From: a virus
Lineage: Duplodnaviria; Heunggongvirae; Uroviricota; Caudoviricetes
Strand: one strand, 5' to 3'
Length of the DNA: 55,233 nt
Virus record (IMG/VR): IMGVR_UViG_2537561945_000003
Shown here: piece by piece, positions 35,485-53,594 of the stretch
Numbering within the stretch: position 1 is the first letter of the stretch
Layout: each line of letters begins with the position of its first letter
Program-made: the position numbers and the translations under genes
The notes under the pieces: generated by a model
What the model was told of the DNA's origin: nothing
Seen by the model: only the letters and a program-made list of their open reading frames with translations
Database searches by the model: none

Positions 35485-35590
35485 TCAGAGAATGCGTTTG
35501 ACCGCCTCGCTATATACTTCCGAGCGTTCTCTTTTCCCAACAGAAATCACGAAAACGACAACTTTCTCGTCTATAACCTGGTATACAAGG
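35485..35590 (-). pseudogene. relE: relE toxin, C-terminal fragment (gene split by IS629)
   Basis: encodes (L)VYQVIDEKVVVFVISVGKRERSEVYSEAVKRIL, the RelE C-terminus, fused in-frame to IS-derived codons. Confidence 0.9.
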
Positions 35591-35632
35591 TGAACCGCCC
35601 CGGGTTTCCTGGAGAGTGTTTTATCTGTGAAC

Positions 35633-36523
35633 TCAGGCTGCCAGATCATTGTTTCCGATGGAAGCATAATAAGCTTTTTCTGCTTCTGCCGGAGGAGTAT
35701 GGCCCAGCCTTCCCAGCAATCGTCGATTGTTATACCAGTCCACCCACGTTAGTGTGGCCAGTTCCACTTCTGCACGGTTTTTCCAGCTCTTACGGTGTAT
35801 TACCTCCGCTTTGTAAAGACCATTGATGCTCTCAGCCATCGCGTTGTCATACGAGTCGCCTGTACTCCCTGTTGATGCCAGTAATCCGGCTTCTTTTAGT
35901 CGCTCCGTATAGGCCAGTGACACATACTGAGAGCCTTTATCGCTGTGATGGATGGTGCCAGACGGACGACGGGCCCACAACGCCTGCTCCAGCGCATCCA
36001 GCACGAATGTCGTTTCCATAGACGATGAGACCCGCCACCCCACGATGTATCCGGCAAACACATCAATGATGAACGCCACATAGACGAAGCCCCGCCATGT
36101 GCTGACGTAAGTAAAATCAGCCACCCACAGCTGGTCAGGTCGTTCTGCCACGAACTGACGGTTTACGCGGTCGCCTGCGGCAACGGCTTTCCGGCTGATG
36201 GTCGTACGGACCTTTTTACCCCGGAGAACACCGGCAAGTCCCATAACCGCCATGAGGCGCGCCACTGTACATCTGGCCACCCTGATTCCTTCCCGTAACA
36301 ACTGACGCCAGACTTTACGCACACCGTACACCTGATGATTTTCATCGTATACGCGCTGTATCTCTCTCTTCAGCCAGTCATCGTGCTGCGCACGGGCACT
36401 GCGTTTATCCGGATGATGTCGCTGTTGCTGACAATGGTAATACGTTGACGGGGCAATATGCAGTTCGCTGCATACCGGTCCGACCCCGTACTGCTCACGC
36501 AGCTTATCCAGCAGTGGCATCAT
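35633..36523 (-). CDS. IS629 transposase OrfB (DDE integrase core)
   Basis: 296-aa ORF with DDE/rve domain, made as OrfAB fusion by -1 frameshift in IS3 family. Confidence 0.9.
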
Positions 36524-36846
36524 TTTTTCCAGAGGCGGTCGAACTCCGCCTTCGCAAAATAAGCGGAAGCCTGGCGAAGGATATCGTTACTGCGGCGCAG
36601 TTCACGATTTTCACGTTCCAGCTCTTTCAGACGCTGACGTTCAGCGCTGGTGAGCCCACCATCACCGCCCCCGGTATCCCGCTCATGCTGGCGAACCCAG
36701 ACACGCAGAGTCTCCGGCGTACAGCCAATCTTTGGGGCAATGGAACAAATTGCCGCCCACTGTGAGTCATATTCATCCTGACTTTCCAGAACCATACGAA
36801 TCGCCCGCTGACGGACTTCGGGGGAAAAACGAGTATTTTTAGTCAT
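36520..36846 (-). CDS. IS629 transposase OrfA (HTH, leucine zipper)
   Basis: 108 aa [41 protein letters not shown]; ends LWKK with A-run at the frameshift window. Confidence 0.9.
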
Positions 36847-36900
36847 CCTGTTTACCTCTTTCTCAGGGAGTTTAGTCTCCAGGATTTCCGGGGCGGTTCA

Positions 36901-37085
36901 AGGCGATAGCCTGAAGACCGGAGCTTAATCTTGTAACAATCAGGCATACCACGGAGCTTGTTTGCTTCAATCCGGGGTGACTCAAGTACTTCAACCAGCT
37001 TCTTTTTCAACTGTTCACGTACCGTCGAGCCCAGCTTTCGCCATTCCTTTAGTGCCCGCTCGTCAAAATCCAGAAAATACGCCAT
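36901..37085 (-). pseudogene. relE: relE toxin, N-terminal fragment (gene split by IS629)
   Basis: MAYFLDFDERALKEWRKLGSTVREQLKKKLVEVLESPRIEANKLRGMPDCYKIKLRSSGYRL, then reads into the IS. Confidence 0.9.
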
Positions 37086-37324
37086 CAGAGTTCATCCAGC
37101 GTCACACGTACTGGCTTAGGATTACGAAGCCGTTCTTTCACTATCTCCACAAGTTCAGCATCTTCATCACTCAGGAGTGTCTGTTTGAACGGCAAGCGTT
37201 CATTGTCAGCGATATACTCGAGCATGAGACGAAGCGCTTCAGAAGGAGTTACACCCATTTTTTCAAGCGCGGCGTAAGAACGCGCTTTAAGTTCATCGTC
37301 AATACGCAGGTTAATGCTACCCAT
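37085..37324 (-). CDS. relB: RelB antitoxin (intact)
   Basis: 79 aa MGSINLRIDDELKARSYAALEKMGVTPSEALRLMLEYIADNERLPF... Confidence 0.9.
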   Translation of the reverse strand: MGSINLRIDDELKARSYAALEKMGVTPSEALRLMLEYIADNERLPFKQTLLSDEDAELVEIVKERLRNPKPVRVTLDEL

Positions 37325-37348: not shown

Positions 37349-37654
37349 ATGTCATTACAAGTATCGCACTACAACATGCTTAGGGCAAGTCACGAAGGAA
37401 GTCAGAAAGTAGTCGTAAGAACGGTGATCACTGTCCGCTTTGTGCCAGGAGCAGCCATTGCTAAGTCCATCCTGTATTGTGCAGGTCAGCTCGTTTTTAA
37501 AGAGTCCGGCCATCATCTTACTGGTACAGACACCATATACTTTGTGACGGTCAGGCTACATATGCACAACTCAACTTATTCATCTATTTTTTGCTTTAGC
37601 ATGTCAGTGTTGCTTTCTCGTCGGCGGGTGAGCGGTGACCTGACCTGTCGATAA
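37349..37654 (+). CDS. hypothetical protein, possibly YdfV-like
   Basis: 101-aa ORF at the Qin ydfV position and size; sequence not recognised. Confidence 0.3.
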   Translation: MSLQVSHYNMLRASHEGSQKVVVRTVITVRFVPGAAIAKSILYCAGQLVFKESGHHLTGTDTIYFVTVRLHMHNSTYSSIFCFSMSVLLSRRRVSGDLTCR

Positions 37655-37889
37655 AGGAACGTAACACGTTTTATGCAACACCCGCATGCGGCAGAAAATT
37701 ATTGCCGAACGTTTACCCCTGTCAACAAGCTTTACTTTCTGAGGCGCGCCAGCCCGCGAGGAAAACAATCTGAACATCAAACAATTAATGACACAAGAAA
37801 TACGATTAAAGATTTTTTGTAAGCGTACAGCCTGAACCGTCTGGTCAGAATCTGACGAATTAGACAAAGTGGTGTCCACCAAATAAGTA

Positions 37890-38291
37890 GTGGGAACCAA
37901 AGTATCAGATATGCAGAAAAATGTGACTCCCGGCAGGCGAAAAGGCTGCCCTAATTATCCTCCCGAATTTAAACAGCAGCTCGTTGCTGCCTCCTGTGAA
38001 CCCGGGATATCCATCTCAAAACTTGCTCTTGAAAATGGCATTAACGCCAATCTGTTGTTCAAATGGCGACAACAATGGCGCGAGGGAAAACTGCTATTAC
38101 CTTCTTCAGAGAGCCCCCAGCTACTTCCTGTGACTCTCGATGCAGCTGCCGAACAGCCAGAATCGCTCGCAGAGGACCCGGAAACCCTCAGTATCAGCTG
38201 TGAGGTAACGTTCCGGCACGGGACGCTCCGCTTCAATGGCAATGTCAGCGAAAAGCTCCTGACTCTGCTGATACAGGAACTGAAGCGATGA
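37890..38291 (+). CDS. IS66-family accessory protein OrfA (TnpA)
   Basis: 133-aa ORF, first of the IS66 triplet. Confidence 0.85.
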   Translation: MGTKVSDMQKNVTPGRRKGCPNYPPEFKQQLVAASCEPGISISKLALENGINANLLFKWRQQWREGKLLLPSSESPQLLPVTLDAAAEQPESLAEDPETLSISCEVTFRHGTLRFNGNVSEKLLTLLIQELKR

Positions 38292-38635
38292 TCCCGTTAC
38301 CTTCCGGGACCAAAATTTGGCTGGTTGCCGGTATCACCGATATGAGAAATGGCTTCAACGGCCTGGCTGCGAAAGTACAAACGGCGCTGAAAGACGATCC
38401 CATGTCCGGCCATGTTTTCATTTTCCGGGGCCGCAGCGGCAGTCAGGTTAAACTGCTGTGGTCCACCGGTGACGGACTGTGCCTCCTGACCAAACGGCTG
38501 GAGCGTGGGCGCTTCGCCTGGCCGTCAGCCCGTGATGGCAAAGTGTTCCTTACGCAGGCGCAGCTGGCGATGCTGCTGGAAGGTATCGACTGGCGACAGC
38601 CTAAGCGGCTGCTGCCCTCCCTGACCATGCTGTAA
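38288..38635 (+). CDS. IS66-family accessory protein OrfB (TnpB)
   Basis: 115 aa [26 protein letters not shown]... Confidence 0.9.
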
Positions 38636-38684
38636 ATCTCTTTATCCTGGTTGTCACAGAATAAGCCCGGTAAAATACGGGCTT

Positions 38685-40223
38685 ATGAACGACATCTCTT
38701 CTGACGACATCTTCCTGCTGAAACAGCGCCTGGCCGAACAGGAAGCGCTGATCCACGCCCTGCAGGAAAAGCTGAGCAACCGGGAGCGCGAAATAGACCA
38801 TCTGCAGGCGCAGTTGGATAAACTCCGCCGGATGAACTTCGGCAGTCGTTCCGAAAAAGTCTCCCGCCGTATCGCACAAATGGAAGCCGATCTGAACCGG
38901 CTTCAGAAAGAGAGCGATACGCTGACTGGTAGGGTGTATGACCCGGCAGTACAGCGTCCGTTGCGTCAGACCCGCACCCGTAAGCCGTTCCCTGAATCAC
39001 TACCCCGTGACGAAAAGCGACTGTTGCCTGCGGCGCCGTGCTGCCCGAACTGCGGCGGTTCACTGAGCTATCTGGGCGAGGATACCGCCGAACAGCTGGA
39101 GTTGATGCGTAGCGCCTTCCGGGTTATCCGGACGGTACGGGAAAAACATGCCTGTACTCAGTGCGATGCCATCGTGCAGGCACCTGCACCTTCGCGGCCC
39201 ATCGAGCGGGGTATCGCCGGACCGGGGCTGCTGGCCCGCGTGCTGACCTCGAAGTATGCAGAGCACACCCCGCTGTATCGCCAGTCAGAAATATACGGCC
39301 GGCAAGGTGTGGAGCTGAGGCGTTCACTGCTGTCGGGCTGGGTGGATGCATGCTGCCGGCTGCTGTCTCCGCTGGAAGAGGCGCTTCATGGCTATGTCAT
39401 GACTGACGGCAAACTCCATGCCGATGATACCCCGGTCCAGGTACTGCTGCCGGGTAATAAGAAGACGAAGACCGGGCGGTTGTGGGCGTATGTTCGTGAT
39501 GACCGCAATGCCGGGTCAGCGTTGGCACCTGCAGTGTGGTTCGCTTACAGCCCGGACAGAAAAGGCATCCATCCGCAGACTCATCTTGCCTGCTTCAGCG
39601 GTGTGCTGCAAGCGGATGCGTACGCCGGGTTCAACGAGCTTTATCGCAATGGTGGGATAACGGAAGCTGCCTGCTGGGCTCATGCCCGCCGAAAGATCCA
39701 CGATGTGCACGTCCGCATCCCGTCAGCACTGACGGAAGAAGCCCTGGAGCAGATCGGTCAGTTGTACGCCATAGAGGCGGATATAAGGGGAATGCCGGCA
39801 GAGCAGCGGCTTGCTGAACGTCAGCGAAAAACGAAACCGTTGTTGAAATCCCTGGAAAGCTGGTTGCGTGAAAAGATGAAGACCCTGTCGCGACACTCAG
39901 AGTTGGCGAAGGCGTTCGCGTACGCACTTAACCAGTGGCCGGCACTGACGTACTATGCGAACGATGGCTGGGTGGAAATCGACAACAACATCGCTGAAAA
40001 TGCCCTGCGGGCGGTCAGTCTGGGTCGTAAAAACTTCCTGTTCTTCGGCTCTGACCATGGTGGTGAGCGGGGAGCGCTACTGTACAGCCTGATCGGGACG
40101 TGCAAACTGAATGACGTGGATCCAGAAAGCTACCTTCGCCATGTGCTTGGCGTCATAGCAGACTGGCCGGTCAACCGGGTCAGCGAACTGCTTCCGTGGC
40201 GCATAGCACTGCCAGCTGAATAA
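38685..40223 (+). CDS. IS66-family transposase OrfC
   Basis: 512 aa with CxxC zinc-ribbon and DDE region. Confidence 0.9.
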
Positions 40224-40306
40224 CACATCCCCGTCAATACGGCCCTCGCTGTACGCTTACGATTTTTTTGTGCATGCCGATAGTGCTTTTTTAAAAGGAG
40301 AAATCT

Positions 40307-40639
40307 ATGTCTGTCACAATTCAGGGAAATACCTCAACCGTTATTTCAAACAACTCCGCCCCGGAAGGAACATCAGAAATAGCCAAAATCACAAGACAAA
40401 TTCAGGTGCTGACTGAAAAGCTTGGGAAAATCTCATCGGAAGAGGGGATGACGACACAGCAGAAAAAAGAAATGGCTGCATTGGTACAGAAGCAAATTGA
40501 AAGCCTCTGGGCTCAACTGGAGCAGTTGTTAAGGCAGCAGGCAGAGAAAAAGAATGAAGACGCGACAGTTCAGCCTGATAAAAAAGAAGAGAAAAAAGAC
40601 GATACAAATACCGCTGGCACCATTGATATTTACGTCTAA
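40307..40639 (+). CDS. flxA: FlxA (FliA-regulated protein)
   Basis: 110 aa MSVTIQGNTSTVISNNSAPEGTSEIAKITRQIQVLTEKLG...; sigma-28 -10-like GCCGATAG about 25 nt upstream. Confidence 0.85.
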   Translation: MSVTIQGNTSTVISNNSAPEGTSEIAKITRQIQVLTEKLGKISSEEGMTTQQKKEMAALVQKQIESLWAQLEQLLRQQAEKKNEDATVQPDKKEEKKDDTNTAGTIDIYV

Positions 40640-42903: not shown

Positions 42904-43666
42904 TATTCCTCCTACAATCAATGTGCAATTACATTTAAACACACCTCAATTTGGCCGGACATATAAATATCTAAACCAGAAAAAATCACTTACATAGCGT
43001 TACAAACTCTTTAGTCTAAAGGTTCATCGTAAAACATTCCCCATACTTATCAGTCCGTTCCGCGCCAGGTAGCTCATTGCCTTATCTGGCAACCTGTAAT
43101 CAGGTTTCCGCTTTTTCAGTTGGCTGGTCGTTTAACCGACATAGTTAATCCATTAATCTAGTTGCCGGATGTTGGTGGATTTTCGCGTTTTAGTTGTTCA
43201 TAAAAGTGCACAGCTTTAACCAGTTCTTCTGATGTAACTGGGACTGGTGAGGCAGTGAATAAGGCCTGAATTTGATAGTTCGGCCTGTCGTTACAATCCT
43301 CTTTTTTCGGTACATATTTCCAGTCACCAGACCACTACTTCCCCTGAAAGTCCGTAACGCCTTTTTTCACGTAGCGATATCGCCATGCCACTGGTTTTGC
43401 TTGCCCCGCCGTTTCATGCCCTTCCTGATAATTAATCTCGCTCATTCATCGCCCCACTCATCACAATATGCTTCGACCGGAGTTTTTCCCGCTTCATAGT
43501 CATCACGCTAGGATTCGACATCAGCAGCACTTCCACCGCGTAACTCACCATAGTCCATTAATAGTTCATCCCGCTCTTCAAAACTGTAAGCGTCGTCTCA
43601 GCACCGTCTGGCAGATCCTGAAATTCCTGAGAGAATAGTGGACACCAAATATGGTGGACGCAATCC

Positions 43667-44071
43667 ATGAAATCATTAACCGCAGTGCGTAAAAAAAGCC
43701 CTAATTATCCCGTTGAGTTCAAAATCAAAATGGTTGAACTCTCGCATCGACCAGAGATCTCCGTAGCGCAACTCGCTCGTGAGCATGGGATCAACGATAA
43801 TTTGCTGTTCAAGTGGCGCCAGTACTGGCGCGAAGGAAAACTACGTCCTCCTTCAACAACAGAAAACAACGTGCCTGAGCTGCTCCCGATAACACTTGAT
43901 GCCGAAGATGTTGTCCCTACAACCTCCCCCCGGTCACAACCTGTAGCTGCTGCGACACCTGAATCACTCAATATCAGCTGTGAAGTGACGTTCCGGCACG
44001 GATCACTCCGTCTGAATGGTGCCATCAGCGAAAATATCCTGAACCTGCTGATACGGGAGCTCAAACGTTGA
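43667..44071 (+). CDS. IS66-family OrfA
   Basis: 134-aa ORF. Confidence 0.85.
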   Translation: MKSLTAVRKKSPNYPVEFKIKMVELSHRPEISVAQLAREHGINDNLLFKWRQYWREGKLRPPSTTENNVPELLPITLDAEDVVPTTSPRSQPVAAATPESLNISCEVTFRHGSLRLNGAISENILNLLIRELKR

Positions 44072-44415
44072 TCCCATTACCATCAGGGACAAAGATCTGG
44101 CTGGTCGCTGGCATCACCGATATGAGAAACGGCTTCAACGGCCTGGCGGCAAAGGTGCAGACGACGCTGAAAGACGATCCGATGTCAGGTCACGTTTTTA
44201 TCTTCCGTGGGCGTAATGGCAGTCAGGTAAAGCTCCTCTGGTCTACCGGCGATGGACTGTGTCTGCTGACCAAACGGCTGGAGCGCGGCCGCTTCGCCTG
44301 GCCGTCAGCCCGGGATGGCAAAGTGTTCCTCACACCGGCACAGCTGGCGATGCTGCTGGAAGGTATCGACTGGCGGCAGCCTAAAAGACTGCTTACGTCC
44401 CTGACTATGTTGTAA
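44068..44415 (+). CDS. IS66-family OrfB
   Basis: 115-aa ORF. Confidence 0.9.
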   Translation: MIPLPSGTKIWLVAGITDMRNGFNGLAAKVQTTLKDDPMSGHVFIFRGRNGSQVKLLWSTGDGLCLLTKRLERGRFAWPSARDGKVFLTPAQLAMLLEGIDWRQPKRLLTSLTML

Positions 44416-44463
44416 GCCTCTTTATCCTGGTCGACGCTGAATGAGCCTGGTAATATACCCGGT

Positions 44464-45999
44464 ATGAGCAGCTCACTTCCTGACGATATCAATGCACTGA
44501 AACGTCTCCTTGCCGAACAGGAGGCGCTGAACCGTGCCCTGCAGGAAAAGCTGAACGAGCGTGAACGCGAAATAGACCATCTGCAGGCACAGCTGGATAA
44601 GCTGCGCCGGATGAACTTCGGCAGCCGCTCGGAAAAAGTCTCCCGTCGTATCGCACAGATGGAAGCTGACCTGAAGGCACTTCAGAAAGAAAGTGATACC
44701 CTTACCGGTCGGGTTGACGACCCGGCCGTGCAGCGCCCGCTGCGTCAAACCCGCACCCGCAAACCGTTCCCCGAATCACTCCCCCGCGATGAAAAACGGC
44801 TGCTGCCGGCAGCGTCATGCTGCCCGGAATGTGGAGGCTCGCTGAGCTATCTGGGTGAGGATGCCGCCGAACAGCTGGAGCTGATGCGCAGCGCCTTCCG
44901 GGTTATCCGGACTGTACGTGAAAAGCATGCCTGTACTCAGTGCGATGCCATCGTGCAGGCCCCCGCGCCTTCACGGCCCATCGAGCGGGGTATCGCAGGA
45001 CCGGGGCTGCTGGCCCGCGTGCTGATCTCAAAGTATGCAGAGCACACCCCGCTGTACCGCCAGTCTGAAATGTACGGCCGCCAGGGCGTGGAGCTGAGTC
45101 GTTCACTGCTGTCGGGCTGGGTGGATGCATGCTGCCGGCTACTGTCACCGCTGGAAGAAGCGCTTCAGGACTATGTGCTGACTGACGGTAAGCTCCATGC
45201 TGATGACACGCCTGTCCCGGTGCTGTTGCCAGGCAATAAGAAAACGAAGACCGGGCGGTTATGGACCTACGTTCGTGACGACCGTAACGCCGGGTCAACG
45301 CTGGCGCCGGCGGTGTGGTTCGCTTACAGCCCGGACAGAAAAGGCATCCATCCGCAGACCCATCTTGCGGGGTTCAGTGGTGTACTGCAGGCGGATGCAT
45401 ACGCCGGGTTCAACGAGCTGTACCGGGATGGCCGGATAACGGAAGCCGCCTGTTGGGCTCACGCCCGCCGTAAAATCCACGATGTGCACGTTCGCACCCC
45501 GTCAGCCCTGACGGAGGAAGCGCTGAAACGGATCGGCGAACTGTACGCCATCGAGGCAGAGATAAGGGGAATGACGGCGGAGCAGCGCCTTGCCGAACGT
45601 CAGTTGAAAACGAAACCGCTGCTGAAATCCCTGGAAAGCTGGCTGCGTGAAAAGATGAAAACCCTGTCGCGACACTCAGAACTGGCGAAAGCGTTCGCAT
45701 ACGCCCTGAACCAGTGGCCGGCGCTGACGTACTATGCAGATGATGGCTGGGCTGAGGCGGACAATAACATCGCTGAAAATGCGTTGCGGATGGTCAGTCT
45801 GGGCCGCAAAAACTACCTGTTCTTCGGTTCGGATCATGGAGGAGAGCGGGGAGCGCTGCTGTACAGCCTGATCGGGACGTGCAAACTGAACGGAGTGGAG
45901 CCAGAAAGCTACCTCCGCTATGTCCTTGACGTCATAGCCGACTGGCCGATAAACCGGGTCGGCGAACTGCTCCCCCTGGCGCGTAGCACTGCCGACTGA
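44464..45999 (+). CDS. IS66-family transposase OrfC
   Basis: 511-aa ORF. Confidence 0.9.
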
Positions 46000-46518
46000 A
46001 TAACACATCCCCGTCAATACGGTTCTTGCTGCACGCTTACTCAAAACTGATGTTATATTTAGCTGAACAAAAATCAGCCACTTTGTTCTTCCTCATCGTC
46101 TTTTATTTCGTGGTATGAGTAATTGCAGTAGTTAAAGAAAATTTCTTATGCTCCGTCATGAATTTCCTCAGGTGTTGCGTCATCGTCCACTTCGAATACA
46201 TCCTCAAAATCTCCACCAGCTATTCCCGTTTCAATAATAATTTTGAACTTTCGCATTTCACTACCGCCCTTTCGGGCGGCCTCCTGATGTTCTGAGGGTG
46301 CAGAAATCCATCCGGTTAAGGATTAAATTTTATTTACAGAACTGAATTTAATTATTCAGATATACGTATCTGTAGCCTTACGAATCTACTCACTGGATGC
46401 CTCTTTCATAAAAATAATCCAGTGGGTTTTATCGTTTTTTCCCTGTTCGTTGACAGATAACAGGTTTTCTGTCTGTCAGTGCCAGAATCTGGCTTACCGG
46501 TATTTGCGTTTCATTCCA

Positions 46519-51122: not shown

Positions 51123-53594
51123 ATGAGTAAAGTCTTTATTTGCGCCGCTATTCCTGACGAACTGGCAACAAGGGAAGAAGGCGCTGTGGCTGTAGCCACA
51201 GCCATTGAAGCTGGCGACGAACGCCGTGCTCGAGCAAAATTTCACTGGCAATTCCTGGAACATTATCCGGCTGCTCAGGACTGCGCTTATAAATTTATTG
51301 TCTGCGAGGATAAACCTGGCATACCCCGCCCTGCCCTCGATTCATGGGATGCTGAATATATGCAGGAAAACCGCTGGGATGAGGAGTCTGCTTCTTTTGT
51401 CCCGGTTGAGACTGAATCCGATCCGATGAACGTCACTTTTGACAAGCTGGCCCCTGAAGTACAGAACGCTGTCATGGTTAAGTTCGACACATGTGAAAAC
51501 ATCACCGTTGATATGGTTATTAGCGCACAGGAATTGTTGCAGGAAGACATGGCAACATTCGACGGACATATCGTTGAAGCGTTGATGAAAATGCCAGAAG
51601 TTAACGCCATGTATCCGGAGCTTAAGTTGCACGCCATTGGGTGGGTTAAGCATAAATGTATTCCTGGTGCTAAATGGCCCGAAATTCAGGCAGAGATGCG
51701 CATCTGGAAAAAACGTCGCGAAGGTGAACGCAAGGAAACCGGAAAATACACGTCTGTTGTTGATCTCGCCCGCGCCAGAGCCAATCAACAGTACACTGAA
51801 AATTCAACAGGAAAAATCAGCCCGGTCATTGCTGCCATTCATCGCGAATACAAGCAGACATGGAAAACACTGGATGACGAACTGGCCTACGCTCTCTGGC
51901 CTAGTGATGTGGATGCCGGAAACATTGACGGCAGCATCCATCGCTGGGCAAAAAAAGAAGTTATCGACAACGACCGCGAAGACTGGAAGCGTATCTCGGC
52001 ATCAATGCGCAAACAGCCTGATGCCCTTCGCTACGACCGCCAAACTATTTTTGGCCTTGTCCGTGAGCGTCCGATCGACATTCACAAAGATCCCGTAGCA
52101 CTGAACAAATATATCTGCGAATACCTGACGACAAAGGGCGTGTTTGAGAATGAAGAAACAGACCTGGGCACTGTTGATGTTCTCCAGTCATCAGAAACAC
52201 AAACTGATGCAGTGGAAACTGAGGTATCTGATATCCCAAAAAATGAAACCGCGCCGGAAGCTGAACCATCTGTAGAGCGTGAGGGGCCGTTCTATTTCCT
52301 CTTCGCAGATAAGGACGGAGAAAAATACGGTCGCGCAAACAAACTCTCTGGTCTGGATAAGGCACTGGCTGCTGGCGCCACTGAAATCACAAAAGAAGAA
52401 TATTTTGCCCGAAAAAATGGCACATACACGGGCTTACCGCAAAATGTAGATACCGCTGAAGATTCAGAACAACCAGAGCCGATAAAAGTTACCGCTGACG
52501 AAGTAAACAAAATTATGCAGGCAGCCAATATCAGCCAGCCTGACGCCGATAAGTTGCTTGCTGCATCACGTGGTGAATTTGTTGAAGGGATTAGTGACCC
52601 GAATGATCCGAAATGGGTTAAGGGGCTCCAGACCCGCGATTCTGTGAACCAGAACCAGCATGAATCGGAACGGAACTACCAAAAAGCGGAACAAAACAGT
52701 CCAAATGCGTTACAAAACGAGCCAGAAACGAAACAGCCTGAACCAGTAGCGCAACAGGAAGTGGAAAAAGTCTGCACCGCCTGCGGTCAGACCGGCGGCG
52801 GCAACTGCCCTGATTGTGGCGCGGTGATGGGCGACGCAACATACCAAGAAACATTCGATGAAGAGTATCAGGTTGAAGTTCAGGAAGATGATCCGGAGGA
52901 AATGGAAGGCGCTGAACATCCACACAAGGAGAACACTGGCGGCAATCAGCATCACAATAGCGATAATGAAACTGGCGAGACGGCAGATCACCCAATTAAG
53001 GTGAACGGTCATCACGAAATCACATCCACCAGCAGGACGTGTGACCATCTAATGATCGACCTTGAAACCATGGGAAAAAATCCTGATGCCCCGATCATCT
53101 CAATAGGTGCAATATTTTTCGATCCGCAAACCGGAGATATGGGACCGGAATTTAGTAAGACTATCGATCTGGAAACTGCTGGCGGAGTCATTGATCGGGA
53201 CACCATTAAATGGTGGCTTAAGCAATCACGCGAAGCGCAATCTGCCATTATGACCGATGAAATCCCGTTAGATGATGCACTGTTACAATTGCGAGAATTT
53301 ATCGACGAAAACTCCGGTGAATTTTTTGTTCAGGTTTGGGGAAATGGAGCCAACTTCGACAACACGATTTTGCGCCGTTCATACGAACGGCAGGGGATCC
53401 CCTGCCCGTGGCGTTACTACAACGATCGCGATGTACGCACAATCGTTGAGCTGGGGAAAGCCATAGACTTCGATGCCAGAACGGCTATTCCATTCGAAGG
53501 TGAGCGCCATAATGCACTTGATGACGCCCGTTACCAGGCAAAATACGTTTCAGTTATCTGGCAAAAACTGATCCCGAGTCAGGCTGATTCTTAA
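51123..53594 (+). CDS. ydfE: YdfE-domain protein fused to a C4 zinc ribbon and a C-terminal DEDDh (DnaQ-like) 3-prime-5-prime exonuclease domain
   Basis: ORF 51087..53594; start MSKVFICAAIPDELATREEG at 51123 with GAGG SD; CTACGQTGGGNCPDCG ribbon; exonuclease motifs DLETMG, WGNGANFD, HNALDDARYQAK. Confidence 0.8.
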   Translation: MSKVFICAAIPDELATREEGAVAVATAIEAGDERRARAKFHWQFLEHYPAAQDCAYKFIVCEDKPGIPRPALDSWDAEYMQENRWDEESASFVPVETESDPMNVTFDKLAPEVQNAVMVKFDTCENITVDMVISAQELLQEDMATFDGHIVEALMKMPEVNAMYPELKLHAIGWVKHKCIPGAKWPEIQAEMRIWKKRREGERKETGKYTSVVDLARARANQQYTENSTGKISPVIAAIHREYKQTWKTLDDELAYALWPSDVDAGNIDGSIHRWAKKEVIDNDREDWKRISASMRKQPDALRYDRQTIFGLVRERPIDIHKDPVALNKYICEYLTTKGVFENEETDLGTVDVLQSSETQTDAVETEVSDIPKNETAPEAEPSVEREGPFYFLFADKDGEKYGRANKLSGLDKALAAGATEITKEEYFARKNGTYTGLPQNVDTAEDSEQPEPIKVTADEVNKIMQAANISQPDADKLLAASRGEFVEGISDPNDPKWVKGLQTRDSVNQNQHESERNYQKAEQNSPNALQNEPETKQPEPVAQQEVEKVCTACGQTGGGNCPDCGAVMGDATYQETFDEEYQVEVQEDDPEEMEGAEHPHKENTGGNQHHNSDNETGETADHPIKVNGHHEITSTSRTCDHLMIDLETMGKNPDAPIISIGAIFFDPQTGDMGPEFSKTIDLETAGGVIDRDTIKWWLKQSREAQSAIMTDEIPLDDALLQLREFIDENSGEFFVQVWGNGANFDNTILRRSYERQGIPCPWRYYNDRDVRTIVELGKAIDFDARTAIPFEGERHNALDDARYQAKYVSVIWQKLIPSQADS

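Follow-up and report, generated by a model that had tools for sequence, protein, structure and literature searches.

Sequence evidence that an ISEc8 element parts the -35 and -10 elements of the flxA sigma-28 promoter in a Qin-type prophage

What is left of a flagellar-regulon promoter when an insertion sequence (IS) comes to lie between its -35 and -10 elements, and would the change matter to the lineage that carries it? The question is raised by the flxA locus of a Qin-type prophage in IMG/VR virus record IMGVR_UViG_2537561945_000003 (Caudoviricetes), a stretch of 55,233 nucleotides whose whole length we call the window, where an IS66-family element sits upstream of flxA. Positions 6263-55233 of the window (48,971 nt) align without gaps and at 100.000% identity to the chromosome of Escherichia coli F41 (NZ_CM135134.3), and the annotation of that genome is given below for individual genes. 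Our overall reading, to which we assign a probability of about 0.8, is that insertion of this element, ISEc8, weakens the sigma-28 (FliA) promoter of flxA and represents the neutral decay of a dispensable prophage gene.

The element, its borders and its genes are as follows.

37819-40260, plus strand: complete ISEc8 (IS66 family), 2442 bp, starting GTAAGCG and ending CGCTTAC, with its genes co-directional with flxA
37811-37818, no strand: left copy of the target-site duplication GATTTTTT, an exact direct repeat
40261-40268, no strand: right copy of the target-site duplication GATTTTTT, an exact direct repeat
37819-37840, no strand: left terminal inverted repeat GTAAGCGTACAGCCTGAACCGT, 22 nt, 82% complementary to 40239-40260
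40239-40260, no strand: right terminal inverted repeat, pairing with 37819-37840 at the exact element end
37911-38291, plus strand: tnpA, IS66 accessory protein with a helix-turn-helix (Pfam HTH_Tnp_1, E=1.6e-12; annotated tnpA in F41)
38288-38635, plus strand: tnpB, IS66 Orf2 (Pfam TnpB_IS66, E=1.2e-38)
38685-40223, plus strand: tnpC, DDE transposase of 512 aa (Pfam DDE_Tnp_IS66, E=2.1e-106, with zf-IS66, LZ_Tnp_IS66 and DDE_Tnp_IS66_C)

The left junction (37818/37819) reads ACGATTAAAGATTTTTT and then GTAAGCGTACAG, and the right junction (40260/40261) reads CTGTACGCTTAC and then GATTTTTTTGTGCATGCCGATAGTGC; one fixed pair of 8-mers is expected to match by chance with a probability of 4^-8 (~1.5e-5). 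The genes tnpA and tnpB overlap by 4 nt and both lie upstream of tnpC in the same direction, and the DDE_Tnp_IS66 match in tnpC spans 283 of the 284 profile positions. The element thus shows the features by which the IS66 family is recognized, namely a TnpC-type transposase, tnpA and tnpB, GTAAGCG-type imperfect inverted repeats and an 8-bp duplication. An earlier note on this DNA had described a 2442-bp IS66-family element bracketed by an 8-bp duplication, and the borders, the inverted repeats, the Pfam matches and the GATTTTTT repeats uphold that description. With regard to its identity, copies at unrelated E. coli loci labelled 'IS66-like element ISEc8 family' by RefSeq/PGAP are 100% identical over 2442/2442 bp, these labelled copies being the reference for the name. 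An ISEc8 copy with at least 80% coverage is present in 3375 of 5426 complete genomes. ISEc8 was first described in E. coli O157:H7 and is listed in ISfinder with a length of 2442 bp and an 8-bp duplication. The sequence therefore points to a standard ISEc8, apparently intact.

Removing the element together with one copy of the duplication reconstructs the empty site as TAAAGATTTTTTTGTGCATGCCGATAG, which has seven T and contains the motif TAAAGATTTTTTTGTGCATGCCGATAGT. The seventh T is position 40269, just 3' of the right duplication copy, and with it the site has the canonical TAAAGATT-N11-GCCGATAG spacing. Over 600 nt the reconstructed empty site is identical (600/600) to E. coli K-12 MG1655, where it lies between ydfV and flxA, and in ~1175 E. 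coli genomes the match extends over 80% or more of these 600 nt. Measured against the sigma-28 consensus TAAAGTTT-N11-GCCGATAA (PMC2859248), the pre-insertion site matches at seven of eight positions in each octamer and has the 11-nt spacer.

The function of this site in K-12 has been defined by experiment. FliA chromatin immunoprecipitation sequencing (ChIP-seq) assigned the motif TAAAGATTTTTTTGTGCATGCCGATAGT to flxA with a FAT score of 16, that is, a peak 16-fold over threshold (Fitzgerald et al. 2014, PMC4183435 Table 2), and RNA sequencing in the same table gave flxA expression values of 280 in motile wild-type MG1655 and 2 when fliA was deleted. Zhao et al. 2007, in their table of the sigma-F regulon, list flxA with a change of -28.4-fold on deletion and 8.2-fold on overexpression (PMC1935009). 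The first description of flxA, by Ide and Kutsukake 1997 as represented in a paper that cites it, was of a gene that is FliA-dependent and dispensable for motility. Because the empty site equals the K-12 FliA motif base for base, the promoter can be called experimentally defined, beyond the 'likely' of the earlier note, and the comparison with K-12 that the note proposed has turned its resemblance to a FliA promoter into identity with the ChIP-seq-defined flxA site. Its joined sequence was right as to the promoter but was written with six T where seven are present; six T would leave an N10 spacer and a score of 10.9 bits, versus 19.9-20.0 bits for seven (scoring described below). Judged by its sequence, ISEc8 is within the experimentally defined sigma-28 promoter of flxA, which it splits after position 12 of the 28-nt motif.

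The split leaves two remnants, the second of them adjoining flxA.

37807-37818, plus strand: orphaned upstream promoter half, consisting of the -35 octamer TAAAGATT (37807-37814) and the first four T of the spacer, equal to K-12 motif positions 1-12
40257-40284, plus strand: hybrid remnant promoter, with TTACGATT at the -35 position, the spacer TTTTTGTGCAT and the intact -10 GCCGATAG (40276-40283)
40307-40639, plus strand: flxA, an intact open reading frame (ORF) of 110 aa with an AAAGGAG ribosome-binding site (Pfam FlxA, E=2.3e-14; annotated flxA in F41)

The -35 TAAA and the -10 are now 2.45 kb apart, in agreement with the 2.4 kb noted before, and the -10 octamer ends at 40283, leaving 23 nt before the flxA ATG at 40307 where about 25 nt had been estimated. 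In the hybrid, TTACGATT is made up of 4 nt of the IS end and the GATT supplied by the duplication, by which the TAAA core has become TTAC (two of four bases changed). Of the original site, the hybrid keeps the whole -10 octamer, a spacer of unchanged length and the 3' four bases of the -35 octamer, whereas a TAAA core at the right distance from the -10 is gone.

We scored both forms with a position weight matrix built from the other 51 ChIP-seq FliA sites of PMC4183435 Table 2, with the following results.

Intact site: 19.9 bits in total (rank 9 of 52 bound sites), -35 half 9.1, -10 half 11.6
Hybrid remnant: 11.6 bits in total (below 46 of 52 bound sites), -35 half 0.7, -10 half 11.6

The drop from 19.9 to 11.6 bits falls wholly in the -35 half. 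The hybrid is the fifth-best 28-mer in the 55-kb window (both strands), and because four unrelated 28-mers equal or exceed its score, the remnant stands at the background level of the window. Changing one base of the TAAAG core in the sigma-28 promoter of aer lowers activity 4.5- to 10-fold, to about the FliA-free level (PMC2859248 Table 1). We therefore expect the sigma-28 promoter of flxA to have lost most of its strength, if not necessarily all of it. The uncoupling of flxA from flagellar regulation that the earlier note foresaw is a reasonable expectation, and it would probably be largely moot in a lineage deleted for fliE-fliR, as described below.

Two further observations concern FliA motifs in the window. 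The orphaned -35, read into the IS, scores -9.2 bits, and we rejected the idea of a FliA-driven transposase as no sigma-28 promoter is formed there. The top FliA-motif match is the 28-mer TCCAGTCTTCGCGGTCGTTGTCGATAAC on the minus strand at 51987 (17.4 bits); it lies within the gene of a prophage 3'-5' exonuclease, in antisense, much like the numerous FliA sites described inside K-12 genes.

Our results indicated that the filled junction is rare. Its exact sequence occurs in only three of the 5426 complete genomes (F41, K99S and EC24.26), and an exact 36-mer of the right junction had no matches in metagenome_contigs. The allele seems to be undiscussed in the literature searched, while being present and annotated in the three public genomes. 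EC24.26 was isolated from cattle and the F41 genome has O101-type O-antigen genes; together with the strain names, the O-antigen type can suggest that the carrier lineage is bovine K99/F41 enterotoxigenic E. coli (ETEC). The O-antigen locus of F41 is itself unusual. O89/O101/O162-type genes (wzm, wzt, glycosyltransferases), wcaM', galF and galE lie between IS26 copies at ~3429862-3448060 of the chromosome, adjoining ybdK and nfsB and far from the usual galF-gnd position, which could reflect IS26-mediated relocation or an assembly problem.

The flagellar gene content of F41 bears more directly on flxA. Annotated as intact are flhDC, motAB-cheAW, tar-tap-cheRBYZ and flhBAE, flgA through flgN (with flgM, which encodes the anti-sigma factor), and fliA, fliZ, fliC and fliDST. 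Missing is fliE-fliFGHIJK-fliLMNOPQR-rcsA-dsrB-yodD, the block that K-12 carries between yedK and yedP; F41 (chromosome 1985663-1992252) has there instead the remnant of an IS200/IS605 element, an insQ-type tnpB, ybcM, ybcL and IS1B. With the other flagellar operons intact, this suggests a recent, IS-associated loss of flagella. The presence of ybcL and ybcM prompted us to consider that the fli genes had been relocated near DLP12/argU, an idea that we dropped: F41 has no DLP12 and no fli genes there.

The fli search across genomes used a chimeric query, composed of the 500-nt junction, 360 nt of fliF and 360 nt of fliP, which was compared with the junction alone. Matching places per chromosome were as follows.

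F41, K99S and EC24.26: two with the junction alone, two with the chimeric query
O17_K12a (control): six with the junction alone, eight with the chimeric query
GPEC1446 (control): five with the junction alone, seven with the chimeric query
K-12 (control): not listed for the junction alone, three with the chimeric query

By this query, with its internal positive controls, fliF and fliP were not found on the F41, K99S and EC24.26 chromosomes. Export of FlgM through the completed hook-basal body is what frees sigma-28 (checkpoint summarised in PMC4183435). With the MS ring, the C ring and the export gate lost, FlgM would stay unexported and hold sigma-28 inactive. Gene content thus indicates that sigma-28 is probably inactive in the carrier lineage.

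We propose the following course of events. ISEc8 would have transposed into the T-tract spacer of the flxA FliA promoter of a Qin-type prophage, duplicating GATTTTTT; the TAAA core of the -35 would thereby have been moved away from the -10 GCCGATAG, and the hybrid TTACGATT-N11-GCCGATAG left beside flxA. In a lineage that lacks fliE-fliR and keeps flhDC, fliA and flgM, FlgM would be retained in the cell and sigma-28 kept inactive. By the time of the insertion the flxA promoter had probably fallen silent, or it became so afterwards, and the insertion would amount to neutral decay, not to regulatory rewiring.

Several other readings have to be weighed against this one. The hybrid TTACGATT-N11-GCCGATAG might still be FliA-dependent by way of its long -10, leaving flxA coupled to the flagellar regulon at a lower level, for its -10 half retains 11.6 bits and the duplication has restored the GATT of the -35 octamer. 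Moreover, the bound K-12 sites of ves (-0.6), yafY (-0.1) and fliAYZ (2.4 bits) have -35 halves as poor as that of the hybrid, yet their FAT scores are 24-91, so that a good -10 alone can recruit FliA holoenzyme. These sites weigh against promoter decay as we read it, and so do some aspects of the flagellar argument: FlgM inhibition in basal-body mutants is strong, not absolute, and the absence of fliF and fliP rests on two 360-nt probes at megablast sensitivity, applied to chromosomes only, and on the local annotation of F41. The three well-bound sites that manage without a -35, however, have the perfect -10 GCCGATAAC, whereas that of flxA is GCCGATAGT. Considering also the low rank of the hybrid among bound sites, its chance-level score in the window, the near abolition of aer activity by single core changes and the probable sequestration of sigma-28 by FlgM, we regard continued FliA control of flxA as quite unlikely. 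A different kind of transcription is conceivable, in which flxA was rewired by joining the ISEc8 transcript as its fourth gene, or came under an outward promoter at the IS end, and is expressed at a low, constitutive and flagella-independent level. The genes tnpA, tnpB, tnpC and flxA indeed all run in one direction, the flxA ATG follows the tnpC stop (40223) at a distance of only 83 nt, and the flxA ribosome-binding site is intact. A terminator scan found no terminator-like hairpin on the plus strand between tnpC and flxA, and the junction RNA folds no more stably than shuffled sequence (z = +1.1). Since no terminator intervenes, whatever flxA transcription remains would most likely come from weak read-through of the tnpA-tnpB-tnpC transcript. 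Anything stronger is disfavoured by the lack of a plus-strand sigma-70-like promoter (at least 9/12 matches) in the region of the IS right end and its junction with flxA, where the best candidate by eye has only ~7/12 matches. IS transposase promoters are also generally weak, and the U7 tract at the junction, which follows an irregular long stem in the minimum-free-energy fold, might terminate some transcripts. We consider rewiring doubtful as the principal outcome, and it is compatible with promoter decay as a minor component.

The remaining alternatives depend on how often, and where, flxA has been hit. IS66-family elements lie inside the flxA ORF in four other genomes, all in the same orientation as the ISEc8 of the window.

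O17_K12a and duplicate record OZ259269: element that is ISEc22-like at its right end, inserted near codon 22 of flxA with the duplication GAAGGAAC
GPEC1446: ISEc8, site and duplication GAAGGAAC as in O17_K12a
2017.06.04CC: ISEc22-type element, duplication GAAAAGCT, at about codon 39 of flxA

Counting the promoter, three IS66-family sites thus fall within ~125 bp of the flxA promoter and 5' end, representing at least 3-4 lineages, and IS1 is found in flxA in five further genomes. The insertions of O17_K12a (L002 3853/6296) and GPEC1446 (L004 3854/6297), a human and a chicken isolate, have different right ends at an identical flxA site; the shared GAAGGAAC site could be a hot spot, or else one ancestral insertion altered by recombination between IS copies. 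We also note that the flxA promoter of O17_K12a (L002 3741-3766) has six T, TAAAGATTTTTTGTGCATGCCGATAG, with a 10-nt spacer and 10.9 bits when aligned on the -10, which may reflect true variation in spacer length or a miscalled homopolymer.

In 2017.06.04CC there was no fliF/fliP match (two places with both queries), and this genome is a second, independent lineage that pairs flxA disruption with fli loss. Overall, fliF is present in 5191 of the 5426 genomes and the flxA locus in 1210; the union of the two is 5204, which leaves just 13 genomes with the flxA locus and without fliF. IS66-type insertions in flxA or its promoter occur in 4/13 fliF-less genomes (the three ETEC and 2017.06.04CC) versus 3/~1197 with fliF. 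Fisher's test gives P = 3e-7 by genome and ~0.01 by lineage, the latter being conservative, and these values need to be read with the phylogenetic non-independence of the genomes in mind. At most the association hints at relaxed selection; IS-rich genomes will show deletions and insertions alike.

These counts might instead be taken to mean that silencing flxA was advantageous in the carrier lineage, or, more generally, that flxA is hit preferentially and its loss is beneficial; the clustering of three sites across several lineages, the additional IS1 insertions and the excess in fliF-less genomes would all fit. Relaxed selection and IS expansion in IS-rich genomes predict the same pattern equally well, however, and the window itself contains three more IS elements. 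To this can be added the non-independence of the genomes, the likeness of the T-tract to the target TATTTTTT of a pO157-type plasmid (see below), which points to target preference, and the dispensability of flxA for motility, which the cited title of Ide and Kutsukake 1997 states. An adaptive explanation appears very improbable to us. As for an artefact of assembly, with the IS misplaced by repeat collapse or mis-joining, ISEc8 is a multi-copy element and the three public records are CM-type chromosome assemblies. An error of this sort is hardly credible against clean junctions, a perfect 8-bp duplication whose removal restores the K-12 sequence exactly, and the identical junction in three separately deposited genomes.

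A broader possibility is that the promoter and 5' end of flxA are a recurrent IS66 landing site, that flxA disruption is enriched in lineages without fliF, and that flxA is selected only while the cell is flagellate. We offer it as a speculation that is probably wrong. If true, it would mean that flxA, an orphan gene of the FliA regulon, has a flagellum-linked function, and that ISEc8 prefers T-tracts of the (G/T)ATTTTTT type. With regard to such a preference, the ISEc8 copy of the pO157-type plasmid p2571-1 has the duplication TATTTTTT followed by TG (L013 2403-2410, 4850-4857), which is near-identical to the flxA target GATTTTTT followed by TG, and another ISEc8 copy is preceded by CATTTTTTC. 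The remaining IS66-type 8-bp duplications were TCAAAACT (in the window), GAAGGAAC twice, GAAAAGCT and AGATATTC. It is plausible that the T7 tract in the promoter spacer is a preferred ISEc8 target, six sites being too few to establish a preference.

ISEc8 is accompanied in the window by an IS3-family element of 1310 bp, another IS66-family element and the remnant of an ISNCY element, and the neighbourhood of flxA includes the following features.

37349-37654, plus strand: ydfV, an intact ORF and the upstream neighbour in the Qin-type prophage (annotated ydfV in the 100%-identical F41)
35591-36900: IS3-family element with a 3-bp duplication AGG, splitting relE (fragments at ~35485-35589 and 36900-37085)
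37085-37324: relB antitoxin gene, intact
37725-37698, minus strand: near-consensus sigma-70-type promoter (TTGACA-16-AATAAT, 11/12 matches) in the ydfV-flxA intergenic region
43586-46040: second IS66-family element, ISEc22-like, 2455 bp, duplication TCAAAACT, with a transposase annotated as frameshifted in F41

With relE split and relB intact, the Qin RelBE system would be disabled on its toxin side. The minus-strand promoter points antisense into ydfV and towards relB, ~375 nt upstream of the relB start. The ISEc22-like element is 85% identical to the ISEc8 of the window and has the same orientation, and the pair brackets flxA, ydfW and the ISNCY remnant in the manner of a composite structure.

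We regard the significance of this locus as low, given that the element, the promoter and the type of event are all known and that promoters in decaying prophages are commonly disrupted by ISs. It is a clean example of an IS parting the -35 and -10 of an experimentally defined alternative-sigma promoter. There is some value for annotation of the bovine ETEC F41/K99 lineage, in which the flxA promoter is disrupted, relE is disrupted and fliE-fliR is deleted. The natural hybrid-promoter allele could also serve to gauge the dependence of sigma-28 on the -35, while making no open question newly testable.

Compared with known systems, most components of the locus are familiar. With the IS and one repeat removed, the window matches the class-3-type flxA promoter of K-12 base for base, flanks included, and it differs in that its copy is split and the flxA-proximal half reads TTAC where K-12 has TAAA. 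Against known ISEc8, the length, the tnpA-tnpB-tnpC order, the ends and the 8-bp duplication are the same and the insertion site alone differs. The genotype of F41, with flhDC, fliA and flgM kept and fliE-fliR gone, is the one that the FlgM/FliA checkpoint associates with inactive sigma-28, its state in this lineage being predicted from gene content. A last comparison is with the IS1 and IS5 insertions upstream of flhDC in K-12 stocks. There, too, an IS lies in regulatory DNA of the flagellar regulon and alters promoter architecture (PMC4183435, PMC11237407). Those insertions, however, activate the master regulator and have clear selected phenotypes, whereas the ISEc8 described here would disable a peripheral, dispensable gene in what is probably a non-flagellate strain.

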